Shown piece by piece: positions 6,186 to 58,010 of a DNA stretch of 64,000 nt. A program made the position numbers and the translations under genes. Under the pieces are notes generated by a model. The model saw only the letters and a list, made by a program, of their open reading frames with translations, made no database searches and was not told where the DNA came from. Origin of the DNA: an uncultured Candidatus Saccharibacteria bacterium. GTDB lineage: Bacteria; Patescibacteriota; Minisyncoccia; Phycocordibacterales; JAKAEA01. Numbering within the stretch: position 1 is the first letter of the stretch; every line of letters starts with the position of its first letter. The stretch is taken from positions 9,424-73,423 of the forward strand of contig CAZFND010000002.1 of assembly GCA_964520645.1 (NCBI GenBank), written 5' to 3'.

Positions 6186-7229
6186 ATGACTCAACCTCCT
6201 AATGAGCAAGAAAATAACTTCGAACCTCAAGTTCCGCCTCAAGAAGAGAGCACTTTTCTTGATACTACCCTTCGACCTTCTCGTTGGGATGAATACATTG
6301 GCCAAAAAAATATAAAAGATAATTTAAAAATACTTCTCAAAGCTGCAGAAGAACGCAATCATCCTCCTGAGCACATTCTTTTTTATGGTCCACCAGGTTT
6401 GGGAAAGACAACACTCGCTCATCTTATTGCAAAAGAGATGAAGACTCAGATGAAAGTAACATCTGGCCCAGCAATAGAAAAAGTAGGCGATCTTGCTTCT
6501 GTCCTTACAAATCTCTCTCCCGGCGATATTCTTTTTATAGATGAAATCCACCGACTCAATAAAGCAATTGAGGAAGTATTGTATCCTGCAATGGAATCAG
6601 GATCACTCGATATTATTATCGGCAAAGGACCTTCAGCACGTACAATCCAGCTCGATCTACCACCATTTACCTTGATAGCAGCTACTACTCGAATAGCACT
6701 CCTCTCTTCCCCACTTCGATCACGCTTTTCGGGTGGAGTCTTTCGTCTCGAATTTTATACACAAGAAGAAATTGAAGAAATTGTTCATCGCTCTGCGCAC
6801 ATTCTTGGAATTAGTATTGGAAAAGATGGAGCACAAGAAATTGCACGACGAAGCCGCTTCACTCCCCGCACTGCCAATTATTTCTTAAAGCGCTGCCGAG
6901 ATTTTGCTCAAGTAAATAAAACAGATCTTAATAAACAGACCGTCGACAAAGCACTCGCGCTATTAGGTATCGATGCAATGGGTCTAACTCATTCTGATAG
7001 AACGATTCTCGAAACTATAGTTAAAAAATTTAATGGCGGGCCGGTAGGACTTAATACTATTGCTGCGTCCCTCTCAGAAGAACAAGCAACCATCGAAGAA
7101 TATAATGAGCCCTACCTAATTCAGGTTGGAATGCTCGAGAGAACTTCACGAGGACGAGTAGTCACTGATGCTGGCTACAAACATTTGGGAGTAAAGAATC
7201 CAAATTTAGATCAGGACAAACTTTTGTAA
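6186..7229 (+). CDS. ruvB: Holliday junction branch migration helicase RuvB
   Basis: GPPGLGKTTLA Walker A, DEIHRL, full-length AAA+ RuvB pattern. Confidence 0.9.
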   Translation: MTQPPNEQENNFEPQVPPQEESTFLDTTLRPSRWDEYIGQKNIKDNLKILLKAAEERNHPPEHILFYGPPGLGKTTLAHLIAKEMKTQMKVTSGPAIEKVGDLASVLTNLSPGDILFIDEIHRLNKAIEEVLYPAMESGSLDIIIGKGPSARTIQLDLPPFTLIAATTRIALLSSPLRSRFSGGVFRLEFYTQEEIEEIVHRSAHILGISIGKDGAQEIARRSRFTPRTANYFLKRCRDFAQVNKTDLNKQTVDKALALLGIDAMGLTHSDRTILETIVKKFNGGPVGLNTIAASLSEEQATIEEYNEPYLIQVGMLERTSRGRVVTDAGYKHLGVKNPNLDQDKLL

Positions 7230-7233
7230 GCAC

Positions 7234-7289
7234 GTCCCTCTCCTGGTAAGGAGAGGGTGGCCGACTTCTTAGGAGGACGGGTGAGGCGG
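7234..7289. repeat. GC-rich palindromic element copy 1 (inverted orientation): CCCTCTCCTggtaAGGAGAGGG ... GGGTGAGGCGG
   Basis: Near-identical to copies at 7696-7744, 50628-50663 and 56147-56184. Confidence 0.7.
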
Positions 7290-7293
7290 TGAT

Positions 7294-7644
7294 TCATAGA
7301 GAATTCTGAATGACCTCTATTACCTTCTCAAACTCATTTTTAATATCTATATTCTTAAACCTAAGTACCATGTATCCTTGTTCTTCAAAGAACAAAGTTC
7401 TTTGATTGTCATATATTTTTGATTCAGCCTCATCATGAACTCCCCCATCAATTTCGATAATAAGCTTCGCTGCTGCACAATAAAAATCAACAATGTAATA
7501 TCCAATACTGTGCTGCCGCCTGAACTTAACACCTAAATTTCTATTTCGTAACACTTCCCAAAGCTTTTTTTCATAAAAAGTACCATTTCTTCTTAGTTCT
7601 TGTCTTCTTCTTTTTAATTCTCGAATATTGTGAATCTTTTTCAT
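7294..7644 (-). CDS. DUF559 endonuclease-like (Vsr/restriction-endonuclease fold) small protein
   Basis: 116 aa from MKKIHNIRE; motifs LWEVLRNRNLGVKFRRQHSIGYYIVDFYC...LIIEIDGGVHD typical of DUF559. The ORF-track N-terminal extension to 7809 is translation of the flanking repeat. Confidence 0.6.
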   Translation of the reverse strand: MKKIHNIRELKRRRQELRRNGTFYEKKLWEVLRNRNLGVKFRRQHSIGYYIVDFYCAAAKLIIEIDGGVHDEAESKIYDNQRTLFFEEQGYMVLRFKNIDIKNEFEKVIEVIQNSL

Positions 7645-7695
7645 ATCTTTACTGTACAGAAATAGTAATAAAGAGATCATAAAAATATTATAAAG

Positions 7696-7744
7696 CCGCC
7701 TCACCCGTCCTACGGACACCCTCTCCTTACCAGGAGAGGGACGG
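7696..7744. repeat. GC-rich palindromic element copy 2: CCGCCTCACCC-N12-CCCTCTCCTTACCAGGAGAGGG
   Basis: Inverted copy of 7234-7289 flanking the DUF559 gene. Confidence 0.7.
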
Positions 7745-7784
7745 TATATTTGATTTTCGAAAAGCATACGAGTATAGTTTGTGC

Positions 7785-8315
7785 ATGGCTGGACATAATA
7801 AATGGTCAAAAATTAAACGACAAAAAGGTGCTTCTGACGCACAGCGCAGTAAGCTTTTTAGTAAAATGGTCCGCTTTATTGGTGTAGAAGCAAAGAAAGC
7901 AAAGGGCAATCTCACATCCCCTGGACTCAAATCTGCTATCGACGCAGCGCGCGCTGCCAACATGCCCAATGACACTATCGAACGTGCTATCAAAAAGGCA
8001 ACAACCGACAACTCAGCTGATATGGAATCTATTACCTATGAAGCTTATGGACCTGGAGGCTCTGCCCTTATCATTGAAGCTTTGACGGATAACAGAAATA
8101 AAGCTGCTCAAGAAATAAAATTTATTTTAAGTAAAAATGGAGCATCCCTTGCAGCAATGGGTGCTGCTTCATGGGCATTCACCAAAGAAAATAATGAATG
8201 GGTTGCTCAAACCACCACTCCTCTATCTGAAGAAGATAGTACTAAGCTCGAAGCACTTATAAATGAGCTCGAGGACAACGACGAAGTACAAAACGTATAC
8301 ACTAACGCTGAATAA
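7785..8315 (+). CDS. yebC: YebC/PmpR family transcriptional regulator (short form with internal deletion)
   Basis: MAGHNKWSKIKRQKG, ITYEAYGPGGSALIIE, C-terminal LEDNDEVQNVYTN; ~60 aa shorter than canonical YebC. Confidence 0.75.
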   Translation: MAGHNKWSKIKRQKGASDAQRSKLFSKMVRFIGVEAKKAKGNLTSPGLKSAIDAARAANMPNDTIERAIKKATTDNSADMESITYEAYGPGGSALIIEALTDNRNKAAQEIKFILSKNGASLAAMGAASWAFTKENNEWVAQTTTPLSEEDSTKLEALINELEDNDEVQNVYTNAE

Positions 8316-50627: not shown

Positions 50628-50663
50628 CCGCCTCACCCTAGCCCTCTCCTTACCAGGAGAGGG
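50628..50663. repeat. GC-rich palindromic element copy 3 (CCGCCTCACCC-tag-CCCTCTCCTTACCAGGAGAGGG)
   Basis: Same family as 7234-7289/7696-7744/56147-56184. Confidence 0.7.
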
Positions 50664-50683: not shown

Positions 50684-51067
50684 GTGTTACGCTATAATCT
50701 TCTCATGACTCGATTAATTTCATTTATCGCTGGTATAGTACTTATTATTTTCTCAGTTGGGTATAGTTATTTATTTGGTAAAACGCATGATAGTCTTGAG
50801 GTTCTTACAATAGCAGGAATTCCTTTAATTATAGGTTTGTTTTTATCTCTTGTTCCTGCTATTTCTTATCTATTTAGAAATAATAAAAATCTTACTAAAA
50901 GTGTACACCCAGCAATAATATGGGGAATTTGGTTAGTTTTGTATGTTACTACTCCATTATCTGGTAATTACATGTTTATTGTAGGAAATGCCGCTCGAGT
51001 TTTCTTTGTGGTAGGAGTTTTATCTTTAATTACTTACCTAATGAATTCAAGAAAGAACACTAATTAA
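50684..51067 (+). CDS. small membrane protein (4 TM), unknown function
   Basis: Hydrophobic ORF; start codon uncertain. Confidence 0.35.
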   Translation: MLRYNLLMTRLISFIAGIVLIIFSVGYSYLFGKTHDSLEVLTIAGIPLIIGLFLSLVPAISYLFRNNKNLTKSVHPAIIWGIWLVLYVTTPLSGNYMFIVGNAARVFFVVGVLSLITYLMNSRKNTN

Positions 51068-55899: not shown

Positions 55900-56100
55900 A
55901 AAATAGCCCCCGTCGACACTTGTCGAACGGGGGCAGAGATGTGAGCTTCACGGGATGCGGGAATGTCTGGCTTTGCGTAAGCCCGCGCTTACGATACCTG
56001 CCAGGATCACCAATGCGGTCAGGAACAGTCCCATTGTCTTCACTCCATGAATAAGCCAGCGCGCAACCGTGCGCGCTTACAAAAGAGCTTACGTACTCGA
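55900..56100 (-). ncRNA. candidate GC-rich structured RNA (unknown class) with promoter and intrinsic terminator, upstream of nusA
   Basis: Minus strand: TTGACT-N17-TACATT promoter near 56105-56135; several GC-rich hairpins; ends with GCCCCCGUUCGACA-agug-UCGACGGGGGC + U6 at ~55905-55941. No credible ORF. Confidence 0.3.
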
Positions 56101-56146: not shown

Positions 56147-56184
56147 CGCCTCACCCCTGGCCCCTCTCCTTACCAGGAGAGGGG
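56147..56184. repeat. GC-rich palindromic element copy 4 (CGCCTCACCC-ctgg-CCCCTCTCCTTACCAGGAGAGGGG)
   Basis: Same family as other three copies. Confidence 0.7.
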
Positions 56185-56261: not shown

Positions 56262-58010
56262 ATGCATATTGAAGAAACACAGTTACTTAATTTTATTTTA
56301 GACTCGGGGCTTGTTTCTCGCTCAGATGTAGAAGCTGCACGTGATGAGGCTCAGGCGCAGGGAACAAGTGTCGGTAAGCTTCTTGTACAACAAGGAAAGC
56401 TCACTGACAATGAACTTCGTCGTATGCAGGCGTATGTGCTCGGTATCCCTTTTGTAGACTTGAAGGGTCAAAAGCTTGATATAGAAGTACTATCTCTCAT
56501 TCCAGAGCCTATTGCTCGCAATCACACTATTGTTGCCTTTAAAAAGACTGATGTATCTCTTGAGGTTGCTATGCTCGATACCGAAGACCTTTCTGCTATC
56601 GACTTTATCAAAAAGAAGACACGACTCAAGATTTTGCCTCGACTTACTGACAATGAGTCCATGAAAGCTGCACTTGTGCAGTATCAGAAGAGCTTGAAGG
56701 CAGAATTTGGAGATATTATCCAAAAAGAAGTAGGTTCACTTACGACAGCACTCAATAAAGAGGAAGTAAGTTCTGAAACTGATCTTAAAAAGCTCGCTGA
56801 AGATTTGCCTGTTGTGCGAGTGGTGGATACATTGCTTAAGCATGCAATTATTCAAAATGCATCTGATATTCATATCGAGCCAATGGAGACAGAAGTGCTT
56901 GTGCGCTATCGAATAGATGGATTGCTCCATGATGCCATGGTACTTCCTGCAAATGCCGGACAATCTATCACTGCCCGTATCAAAGTGCTTTCCAACTTAA
57001 AGCTTGATGAAAAGCGATTGCCTCAGGATGGACGATTTAAAATAGAATCAAATAATGAAAAAGTATCTTTTCGTGTATCTATTCTCCCAACATACTATGG
57101 AGAAAAGACGGTAATGCGATTGCTCCGAGAAAGTGTTTCTGGCTTTACTCTCGAATTCCTTGGATTTCATGGAACGGGTCTTGAAAAGATTCATGATGCA
57201 ACAAAGCTTGCTACGGGAATGATTCTTACAACAGGTCCTACAGGATCAGGAAAGACTACTACGCTCTATACTGTACTCGATATTCTTAATACACCTGATG
57301 TAAATATTTCTACTATTGAAGATCCTGTTGAATACCAGATGAAACGAATCAATCAGACTCAAGTTAAGCCTGATATTGGATTCACGTTTGCTTCAGGGCT
57401 TCGATCACTCGTACGACAAGATCCGGATATTATTATGGTGGGGGAAATTCGTGATAATGAAACAGCATCTCTTGCAGTAAACGCTGCGCTTACGGGACAC
57501 TTAGTGCTTTCGACATTGCACACCAACTCTGCAGCAGGAGCTATTCCTCGTCTTATTGATATGAAAGTAGAACCATTTCTTATTGTTTCTACGGTGAACG
57601 TAATTATCGGTCAGCGTCTTATTCGAAAACTTGCAGGAGAAAAAGAAGAATATTTTCTTACTCAAGCCGAAATTGCTCAGTTAGGAAAATCAATTGATCT
57701 TGAGAAAGTTCTTACATTCCTTGTTGAAGAGAAAGTAGTAAAGGCGGGAACAACATGGGACAAAGTTCCGTTCTATCGTCCTAAGCCATCATCAGAAACT
57801 GAAGATGGATTTAAGGGACGAGTAGGAATTCATGAAGTGCTCAAAGTATCTCCTTCAATTCGTGAACTTATTATGCAAGGAAAGACTGCTCAGGACATCG
57901 AAGCGCAAGCGCGCAGTGAAGGTATGATGACTATGATAGAAGATGGAATATTTCAGGCAGTACAAGGATTAACAACAATAGAAGAAGTTCTACGAGTCAT
58001 AACAGAATAA
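56262..58010 (+). CDS. pilB: type IV pilus assembly ATPase PilB (GspE family), operon copy
   Basis: GPTGSGKTTT, DPDIIMVGEIRD, LTGHLVLSTLHTN; no tetracysteine motif. Confidence 0.8.
   Translation: MHIEETQLLNFILDSGLVSRSDVEAARDEAQAQGTSVGKLLVQQGKLTDNELRRMQAYVLGIPFVDLKGQKLDIEVLSLIPEPIARNHTIVAFKKTDVSLEVAMLDTEDLSAIDFIKKKTRLKILPRLTDNESMKAALVQYQKSLKAEFGDIIQKEVGSLTTALNKEEVSSETDLKKLAEDLPVVRVVDTLLKHAIIQNASDIHIEPMETEVLVRYRIDGLLHDAMVLPANAGQSITARIKVLSNLKLDEKRLPQDGRFKIESNNEKVSFRVSILPTYYGEKTVMRLLRESVSGFTLEFLGFHGTGLEKIHDATKLATGMILTTGPTGSGKTTTLYTVLDILNTPDVNISTIEDPVEYQMKRINQTQVKPDIGFTFASGLRSLVRQDPDIIMVGEIRDNETASLAVNAALTGHLVLSTLHTNSAAGAIPRLIDMKVEPFLIVSTVNVIIGQRLIRKLAGEKEEYFLTQAEIAQLGKSIDLEKVLTFLVEEKVVKAGTTWDKVPFYRPKPSSETEDGFKGRVGIHEVLKVSPSIRELIMQGKTAQDIEAQARSEGMMTMIEDGIFQAVQGLTTIEEVLRVITE

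Follow-up and report, generated by a model that had tools for sequence, protein, structure and literature searches.

A DUF559 endonuclease gene bracketed by inverted intrastrand triplex motifs between ruvB and yebC, and the linkage of this gene family to triplex motifs across bacterial phyla

In REP/RAYT systems (REPtrons, REPINs), one small nuclease-type gene lies between inverted, GC-rich, structured repeats that are also dispersed through intergenic DNA. Intrastrand triplex motifs (TMs), earlier named PIT elements, are a repeat class described from E. coli and other bacteria (Holder et al., 2015; PMC4666352). The E. coli consensus (TM_ECO) is CCCTCNCCC-N3-6-GGGNGAGGG-N3-GGGNGAGGG, with 23 copies in K-12, and single-stranded TM_ECO was shown by CD and NMR to form a triplex in vitro, while a stable triplex was observed neither in duplex DNA nor in vivo (Holder et al., 2015; PMC4666352). 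The same study reported that TMs had no link to mobile elements and that their flanking genes had no common function, found TM loci to be unstable and hypervariable between E. coli strains, discussed the recruitment of repair enzymes by non-B DNA, and cited earlier work in which these motifs had neither promoter nor terminator activity in E. coli (PMC4666352). Although catalogues of TMs, compiled over years, list thousands of copies in hundreds of genomes, no function, origin or partner protein has been assigned to them. The DUF559 proteins form a very large family that still carries the label of unknown function, and the EDxHD family of nucleases, the fold type considered below, includes proven homing enzymes (PMC3239194; PMC3384342).

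Here we describe a DUF559 gene bracketed by inverted TMs in a 64-kb window (the whole stretch of DNA that was analysed, 64,000 nucleotides, with a G+C content of approximately 38-40%), and we compare it with loci of the same gene family in other genomes. Proteins of this family, repeats of this class and the REPtron concept have each been described before. No report of a DUF559-TM association was found in open-access papers and bioRxiv, and the joining of the three is apparently new.

The cassette between ruvB and yebC

A segment of 510 bp sitting between ruvB and yebC is a compact TM-DUF559-TM cassette (Table 1). Its two flanking elements are inverted relative to each other, with the hairpins outermost and the boxes on the side of the gene. 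The window has four copies of the 22-nt hairpin CCCTCTCCT-tacc-AGGAGAGGG and two exact copies of the box CCGCCTCACCCGTCC, compared with 0.00 and 0.01 expected from shuffled sequence, respectively. Folded as DNA, the left TM gives -14 kcal/mol (z=-3.0), and the right TM gives -14 kcal/mol (z=-3.2) with both of its hairpins seen, the folding tool modelling hairpins only. The two elements are not of equal length: the left one spans 57 nt and the right one 48 nt, the difference coming from the linker that separates box from hairpin (21 nt vs 12 nt). The earlier note on this DNA had reported the same element of about 50 bp on both flanks in inverted orientation with hairpins outermost; the repeat, its orientation and its hairpin are borne out, while the two arms turn out to be unequal.

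Table 1. Coordinates of the cassette, its neighbours and the solo triplex motifs in the 64-kb window; for TMs the strand is that of the G-rich strand.
Feature	Position	Strand	Details and basis
ruvB	6186-7229	+	
Outer inverted-repeat arms	7233-7263 / 7713-7743		31 nt, 97% complementary; inverted-repeat search
Left TM	7233-7289	+	Inverted repeat, shuffle counts, full-motif scan
Left TM, pyrimidine arm	7236-7244		CCCTCTCCT, followed by loop GGTA
Left TM, purine arm	7249-7257		AGGAGAGGG
Left TM, linker	7258-7278		21 nt
Left TM, mirror box	7279-7286		GGGTGAGG, then CGG
Inner inverted-repeat arms	7274-7289 / 7696-7711		16 nt, 100% complementary
DUF559 (EDxHD/Vsr-like) endonuclease gene	7294-7644	-	116 aa, ATG start; Pfam, NCBIfam, alignment, PDB match, AlphaFold model
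AT-rich spacer, right TM to start codon	7645-7695	-	Presumed promoter/leader of the DUF559 gene, from sequence
Right TM	7696-7743	-	Inverted repeat, shuffle counts, full-motif scan
Right TM, box complement	7696-7706		CCGCCTCACCC
Right TM, linker	7707-7718		12 nt, with mini-hairpin GTCC-tac-GGAC
Right TM, hairpin	7719-7740		
yebC (YebC/TACO1 family)	7788-8315	+	
Solo TM	50628-50663	-	CCGCCTCACCC-tag-hairpin; 3-nt linker; hairpin 50642-50663
Solo TM	56147-56184	-	3-nt linker; 10-bp stem; hairpin 56161-56184

The gene product matches Pfam PF04480 (DUF559) with E=5.9e-36 (score 123.1 bits, cutoff 20.6; the match spans positions 3-107 of the 109-position profile), in agreement with the 116-aa DUF559 gene that the earlier note had placed between ruvB and yebC. 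The only other Pfam match of the protein is to the related MTES_1575 nuclease family, and no transposase domain was found with Pfam. The NCBIfam model of YcjD, PRK09767, is matched with E=9e-29 at 100 bits, below the equivalog cutoff of 218, so the window protein is a member of the family and not an orthologue of YcjD. In an alignment of 42 sequences, D53, E64, D66 and H70 are invariant and D71 is conserved; the catalytic signature is an upstream Asp followed by E-x-D-x3-H-D, which the window protein reads as EIDGGVHD. PDB entry 3HRL aligns to the window protein at the sequence level with E=2e-19. The AlphaFold model (pLDDT 90.2) retrieves with Foldseek the structures 3HRL (E=1e-6), 3R3P, which is I-Bth0305I (E=1e-4), and 1VSR (probability 0.95). 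By its predicted fold and its residues the window protein is very likely a metal-dependent endonuclease of the Vsr/EDxHD type, and very likely an active one. Two further claims, that the layout is REPtron-like and that the nuclease fold is unlike that of RAYTs, also hold: a nuclease gene is bracketed by an inverted dispersed repeat, paralogues elsewhere carry their own repeat types, and the Vsr/EDxHD-type DUF559 protein has no HUH transposase match.

The repeat is more than a palindrome, and belongs to the known intrastrand triplex motif (TM/PIT) class. At 80 DUF559 loci of other genomes the flanking sequences differ, yet the build recurs: a pyrimidine arm, a loop of 3-9 nt, a complementary purine arm and, 3′ of the latter, a G-rich box. 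Because this box mirrors the purine arm, the element qualifies as an intrastrand triplex motif. On single-stranded DNA the box (G/T/A) would fold back onto the hairpin as a third strand, forming a purine-motif triplex in which the valid triads are G*G-C, A*A-T and T*A-T. All four window copies have a perfect stem of 9-10 bp with a 4-nt loop, and in all four the arm AGGAGAGGG and the box GGGTGAGGC give 8/9 valid triads. Examples of purine arm and box are GGAGAGGG and GGGTGAGG in the window, AGGAGGGG and GGGGTGGT in L003, and GGGGAGGA and AGGAGGGG in L015. A perfect whole-arm mirror was present for 72% of 257 hairpins; the corresponding figures were 19-25% when a direct repeat was sought and 9% when the partners came from other loci. 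A reading of the box as a direct repeat was ruled out by the mirror score, the fit being 160 to 7 in favor of the mirror. When triad bases were counted with the linker fixed at 3 nt and the side chosen by G positions only, box bases facing an arm A were T in 164 cases, A in 132, C in 10 and G in 8, while those facing an arm G were G in 938 cases vs 13 others. Read from sequence, this base usage is the code of an antiparallel purine-motif triplex. The linker between purine arm and box measures 3 nt in most copies, with a second class of 10-28 nt that often holds a small hairpin (80 loci). The earlier note missed both that the element is a known intrastrand triplex motif and that its box is the third strand.

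Other identities were considered for the element. Rfam at gathering thresholds returned only tRNAs and one unrelated match for the whole window and nine DUF559 loci, and a permissive Rfam scan of 7150-7850 gave only chance-level matches; a described RNA family was rejected accordingly as the element's identity. An intrinsic terminator was also rejected, since none was called at 7100-7900 and T-runs are absent after the hairpins. No consensus sigma-70 site was called in 7645-7695. Foldseek also matched the window protein to mitoribosomal proteins of Toxoplasma and Tetrahymena that have the same fold, which would suit a protein that binds the TM as RNA, in the manner of RAP-like domains, and regulates its own or neighbouring transcripts. 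We regard such a role as very unlikely, given that the acidic and histidine residues of the catalytic site are invariant, that no Rfam family matches, and that the equal use of A and T facing arm A fits the DNA purine-motif triplex shown in vitro.

Exactly four elements were found in the window, even by a relaxed scan, and exactly one DUF559 gene (tblastn, 64 kb); the repeat copy number is thus four in 64 kb of the source genome. The first solo TM (50628-50663) lies in a divergent spacer between a putative ClpP-like gene, identified by eye from its translation, and a + strand gene starting at 50706, and its hairpin, including the loop, is identical to those of the gene-flanking copies. The second (56147-56184) lies 80 nt upstream of a + strand gene starting at 56264. 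Both solo TMs have the short 3-nt linker vs 12 and 21 nt in the gene-flanking TMs, so the flanking arms were not simply copied to give the solo elements.

Triplex motifs beside DUF559 genes in other genomes

The association was examined in 80 DUF559 loci (83 genes, 974 kb) from genomes with a G+C content of 28-71%, including Patescibacteria, Bacteroidota, Chloroflexota, Cyanobacteria, Proteobacteria, Verrucomicrobiota and others. These loci contain 257 pyrimidine-loop-purine hairpins vs 16 purine-loop-pyrimidine hairpins, and 179 of the 257 lie within 200 nt of a DUF559 gene. The density is 1.98 per kb near the gene vs 0.088 per kb elsewhere, a 22-fold enrichment that is specific to DUF559, each locus also holding approximately 15 other genes. 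Full TMs (hairpin plus mirror box) numbered 291, vs 8 in block-shuffled sequence. A TM was present within 300 nt of 73/83 DUF559 genes, on both sides in 49 of these 73, while no TM was found for the other 10. As a control, 80 metagenomic loci fetched with RuvB (412 kb) yielded only 10 pyrimidine-loop-purine hairpins. Five of these were in L108, the only control locus with a DUF559 gene, and four were within 200 nt of that gene. The link between DUF559 genes and TMs is general and strong across phyla, and the enrichment of the element next to DUF559 genes, which the earlier note had named as a test of its proposal, is found in both data sets.

The spacing of the two nearest TMs points to a defined unit, the TM-to-TM distance across the gene being almost always 340-570 nt, as in a compact cassette. 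Where TMs were present on two sides, 38 of the nearest pairs were inverted and 14 were direct. Hairpins are outermost, as in the window, in 21 flank layouts, and boxes are outermost in 17-18. These opposite layouts are about equally common, and are therefore not predicted by a single simple end-recognition model; a weak signal relating layout to protein phylogeny (p=0.01) does not account for them. That both flank orientations exist in other genomes had been missed by the earlier note.

The layouts bear on two other explanations. TMs could be expression or insulation signals of a small gene, the upstream one serving as a portable RBS or leader and the downstream one as a hairpin that stabilises the mRNA or ends transcription, and not substrates of the protein at all. 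Such signals would be in keeping with the G-rich, GGAGG-like box found 0-60 nt before the start codon in many loci, with the compactness of the cassette, and with the three C-orientation TMs of the window, each of which lies 43-80 nt ahead of a + strand gene. However, the similar frequencies of both layouts leave no fixed promoter/terminator polarity, the hairpins lack a following T-run or a terminator call, and promoter and terminator activity was absent in E. coli in the work cited by Holder et al. (PMC4666352). Expression signals would also leave unaccounted for both the mirror rule of the box and the choice of this one gene family, and we consider them unlikely to be the explanation. Alternatively, the cassette could be an invertible switch, in which the inverted TMs serve as recombination sites for programmed flipping of the gene. 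DUF559 was reported to be 14-fold enriched among predicted targets of programmed inversion (PMC9881135), and the arms are inverted repeats of 30-50 bp. That enrichment, however, is to be expected for any gene with inverted repeats on its flanks. No recombinase gene adjoins the cassette in the window; the presumed promoter lies inside the invertible segment, so that flipping would not switch expression; and inversion keeps the layout unchanged, so that the two layouts would be unaccounted for. We give very little weight to a switch.

Protein and repeat also appear to be matched in type. DUF559 pairs with the same TM core type are more similar to each other than other pairs (permutation p<0.001), and a core type is common to 7/10 pairs at 70% identity or more vs approximately 20% at 40-50% identity. 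In L013, two paralogues each have their own TM type, GGAGGGG and GGGGGAGG, and the same holds in L045. The distal hairpin is identical in stem and loop to the gene-proximal hairpin at the same locus in 9/83 cases, vs 1/5312 across loci, and the hairpins of the window's solo TMs likewise match those beside its DUF559 gene exactly. Taken from sequence comparison, these data suggest a specific pairing of nuclease and TM type, with a signal that is partly confounded by host phylogeny.

In E. coli and Neisseria the same neighbours are found. In E. coli K-12 the 3′ end of ycjD is 168 nt away from TM_ECO number 9 (1,351,204-1,351,239). The stop codon of the gene is itself overlapped by a degenerate TM, and the interval between this TM and number 9 contains a partial duplicate of the ycjD 3′ end. 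The chance of such proximity between a TM and ycjD is estimated at about 0.003, given 18 TM loci in 4.6 Mb. In N. gonorrhoeae, NGO0050, a family member that has been crystallised, has three TMs within approximately 500 nt. The ycjD gene is present in 3343/5426 complete E. coli genomes, with eefRABCD at that site in the others. According to a published survey, exchange between ycjD and eefRABCD has happened at least twice, ycjD being found in phylogroups A, B1 and C and eefRABCD elsewhere (PMC12817139). TM_ECO counts are available for 56 E. coli strains (Holder et al., 2015, Table S7; PMC4666352). The counts are 13-30 in K-12, B, HS, 55989, IAI1, W, O104:H4 and similar strains, 1-2 in CFT073, UTI89, IHE3034, S88 and 536-type strains, 10-11 in O157 and O55, 13 in 042, and 6-7 in IAI39, SMS-3-5 and CE10. 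We take these strains to belong to phylogroups A, B1 and C, to B2, to E, to D and to F, respectively. High TM_ECO numbers thus coincide with ycjD, a hint that comes from very few independent lineages and is confounded by phylogeny. Groups D, E and F are reportedly without ycjD, yet have 6-13 TMs.

Mobility of the cassette and its possible mechanism

Among the closest available relatives by RuvB (65-77% identity), the gene order ruvB-yebC-ruvC is kept, and the contents of the ruvB-yebC gap vary. In L083 the gap is approximately 8 nt, while L082 has an unrelated insert of 720 nt, L084 one of approximately 1.6 kb and L086 one of approximately 410 nt; neither DUF559 nor a TM was found at the ruvB-yebC position of these four loci. 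The insertion is therefore probably not ancestral. An ancestral and invariant insertion was the other outcome that the earlier note had named as refuting its proposal, and neither of its two tests refuted it. In L049 (Desulfuromonadales) and L067 (Geobacter), a TM-gene-TM unit of approximately 485 bp is common to both, with 78% nucleotide and 84% protein identity, and no match was found beyond the cassette over 8 kb, even with tblastx. Moreover, a 1533-aa methyltransferase ORF in L028 and its orthologue L033 contains an in-frame DUF559 domain whose junction peptides are encoded by TMs. As far as sequence comparison goes, the cassette-only homology of L049 and L067 and the in-frame insertion in L028 point to a moving unit. 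At the window cassette no target-site duplication was seen, the bases outside the two arms reading AAGCA and GTATA, and no recombinase gene adjoins it. Plasmids were rejected as the usual vehicle, with a relative in only 34/72,556 plasmid records, several of which are chromosomes filed as plasmids.

These observations also bear on whether the protein has any direct stake in its flanking repeats. The linkage might be a by-product, with TMs acting as recombination hot spots that capture small genes and DUF559 being merely abundant. The hypervariability of TM loci between E. coli strains (PMC4666352) and the differing inserts at ruvB-yebC in relatives would both be expected of hot spots, but the enrichment is specific to DUF559 among the approximately 15 other genes per locus, the TMs of the RuvB control cluster only at the DUF559 gene, and protein clade and TM type co-vary. 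Chance capture is accordingly hard to credit. Alternatively, DUF559 might be a repair nuclease of the host that removes or processes obstacles formed by triplexes or hairpins at TMs, as at stalled forks, gene and repeats being linked only by co-inheritance or co-transfer. The protein shares its fold with Vsr, a repair nuclease, and both the instability of TM loci in E. coli and the recruitment of repair enzymes by non-B DNA (PMC4666352) are consistent with such a role. A repair enzyme acting in trans, however, needs no substrate within approximately 50 nt on both sides in many phyla, and cassette-only homology in unrelated contexts, together with the in-frame insertion in L028, speaks for a moving unit. 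A pure repair function is in our view improbable. Expression signals, repair, switching, chance capture and RNA binding are all less well supported than a nuclease-repeat pair.

We consider it probable that the cassette is such a pair, REPtron-like or homing-like and selfish (or domesticated), with the TMs as the substrate of the nuclease. That the protein binds and cuts TMs, and how the unit spreads, are inferences. The nuclease would recognise TMs of its own type, whether in the duplex or, where the DNA is transiently single-stranded, in the form of a folded hairpin or triplex, and would cut at or beside them. New sites would then receive a copy of the whole cassette, or of just the TMs, through repair or strand transfer, with TMs serving as ends or as homology arms, and solo and paired TMs elsewhere in the genome would be non-autonomous copies or targets. 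Two routes are candidates: a homing-type route, in which the gene is copied into TM sites, and a REP-RAYT-type route, in which the repeats are mobilised in trans.

A broader proposal is that stand-alone DUF559/EDxHD proteins and TMs form selfish nuclease-repeat pairs throughout bacteria, a second REP-RAYT-like system with another fold and a triplex, whose enzyme is structure-specific and reads the folded triplex. We put this forward tentatively, as a possibility that falls somewhat short of an even chance. If true, cassettes of this kind can insert not only between housekeeping genes but also, in frame, within coding sequences, and the origin and spread of PIT/TM repeats in E. coli, cyanobacteria, Neisseria and candidate-phyla bacteria would be accounted for. 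It would add a second example of a nuclease with a dispersed structured repeat, mechanistically distinct from REP-RAYT. The link to TMs gives both the motifs and the DUF559 family a testable role. With ycjD and 23 copies of TM_ECO both present in E. coli K-12, and with natural lineages of the species that lack ycjD, standard genetics and oligonucleotide biochemistry are feasible. A triplex-reading nuclease, if real, would also be of interest as a tool.

Comparison with known systems

Among described repeats, TM_ECO/PIT elements are closest to the window motif. Both have a C-rich arm, a loop, a G-rich arm, a second loop (3 nt in TM_ECO and in the solo copies of the window) and a second G-rich block, and both are intergenic and multicopy, occurring singly or as inverted pairs; the solo copies of the window fit this description. 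The published search for TMs was limited to a second loop of 1-6 nt (3 nt in TM_ECO), while the gene-flanking copies of the window, with 12 and 21 nt, are a long-linker variant. The near-symmetric E. coli motif cannot show the mirror relationship between arm and box, whereas the asymmetric arms in other phyla do. Furthermore, no associated gene or mobile element was found for the published TMs, in contrast to the window motif, which brackets a nuclease gene.

Among described proteins, YcjD and NGO0050 (3HRL) are, like the window protein, stand-alone DUF559 proteins of about the same size with TMs nearby, although E. coli ycjD has TMs on one side only. Vsr has the same predicted fold and the same histidine/aspartate logic of the active site, nicks a single strand and reads a distortion of the DNA; identity to the window protein is only 17-18%, however, and no dcm-type methyltransferase lies beside the window gene. 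I-Bth0305I (PDB 3R3P) shares the catalytic fold, as modelled (TM-score 0.73 on the target), and the conserved residues, and shows that an enzyme of this fold can make a gene mobile by cutting at a specific site. That enzyme, a multidomain dimer encoded in a phage group I intron, recognises a unique gene site, whereas the window protein is a free-standing core of 116 aa associated with a dispersed repeat. Rfam found no intron family, and the window gene is intergenic, with no intein host gene.

REP/RAYT systems remain the closest parallel in organization. As in REPtrons and REPINs, one small nuclease-type gene lies between inverted, GC-rich, structured repeats that are also dispersed intergenically, paralogues each have their own repeat type, and, by analogy, single-stranded folded DNA is the likely substrate. 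RAYTs are HUH tyrosine transposases of the IS200/IS605 type, unlike the window protein, whose Vsr/EDxHD fold is PD-(D/E)xK-derived. The window repeat has a third-strand box and lacks the GTAG foot of REPs, TM copies so far number tens per genome and not hundreds, where REPs typically exceed 100 per genome, and the TMs occur in two flank layouts around the gene.

The ruvB-yebC junction and triplex motif position

Compared with three RuvB-retrieved loci from other genomes (L082, L084 and L086), the ruvB-yebC junction of the window (7230-7787) is a variable spot in this lineage. The gap between the two genes is about 8 nt in one relative, while in other relatives the two genes are separated by an ORF6N-like gene (from a translation read by eye), by an oppositely oriented gene of 404 aa or by a spacer of 410 nt. 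Directly 3′ of ruvB in L108, a further RuvB-retrieved locus, lies another DUF559 gene with four triplex motifs; L108 comes from a distant relative (RuvB identity 53%), and the arms of its motifs differ in sequence from those of the window.

At 175 aa, the YebC-family protein of the window is short; it matches part of the Pfam domain that covers the second and third YebC domains, over positions 1-55 of the 160 in the profile. This short form looks typical of the lineage, because lengths in relatives are similar.

In three window copies of the triplex motif, the box precedes the hairpin on the + strand, and all three are followed, at a distance of 43-80 nt, by the start codon of a + strand gene. 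With three cases only, this spacing may result from preferential insertion, from a role in regulation or from chance. The window also contains a GC-rich island on the minus strand (genome G+C, 38%). Reading by eye, the island has a hydrophobic ORF of 28 aa, MGLFLTALVILAGIVSAGLRKARHSRIP, with a strong hairpin and a T-run after it. The island could be a gene of foreign origin for a small toxin-like or membrane peptide.

Coordinates of the features discussed
Feature	Sequence	Position	Detail
Box-then-hairpin triplex motif	window	7696-7743	downstream + strand gene start 7788
Box-then-hairpin triplex motif	window	50628-50663	downstream + strand gene start 50706
Box-then-hairpin triplex motif	window	56147-56184	downstream + strand gene start 56264
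YebC-family gene	window	7788-8315	
GC-rich island	window	55900-56080	minus strand
DUF559 gene with four triplex motifs	L108	3442-4013	
Type IIG-like restriction-modification methyltransferase ORF	L028	5883-10484	1533 aa; orthologue in L033
ycjD downstream region	L081 (E. coli K-12)	NC_000913.3 1,351,040-1,351,830	
Half motif near fabI	L162	about 1095-1115	

The DUF559 domain and its fold in other protein contexts

The methyltransferase ORF of L028, a DUF559 locus from another genome, contains a complete DUF559 domain in frame, with one methyltransferase motif on each side. Triplex motifs encode the junction peptides around the domain (PHPNPLPAGEGT ... LPSPPGRRAGEEG), and the arrangement looks like a cassette insertion within a protein with the reading frame kept. 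In a fold search, the matches to the AlphaFold model of the window DUF559 protein included, besides nucleases, several mitoribosomal proteins from Toxoplasma and Tetrahymena; some eukaryotes thus also employ this fold to bind RNA.

The E. coli ycjD site and TM_ECO copy number

In E. coli K-12, the stop codon of ycjD, a DUF559 gene, coincides with a degenerate triplex motif, followed by a duplicated ycjD 3′-end fragment and then by intact TM_ECO number 9. Strains with eefRABCD at the ycjD site retain a half motif, CAAGGGGGAGGTTGGGG, near fabI. Table S7 of Holder et al. (2015, PMC4666352) lists TM_ECO copies by E. coli strain; when the strains are sorted by phylogroup, A, B1 and C have 13-30 copies per strain, B2 has 1-2, and D, E and F have 6-13. 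In a phylogroup-level comparison, confounded by phylogeny, TM_ECO copy number follows the presence of ycjD reported by phylogroup (PMC12817139).
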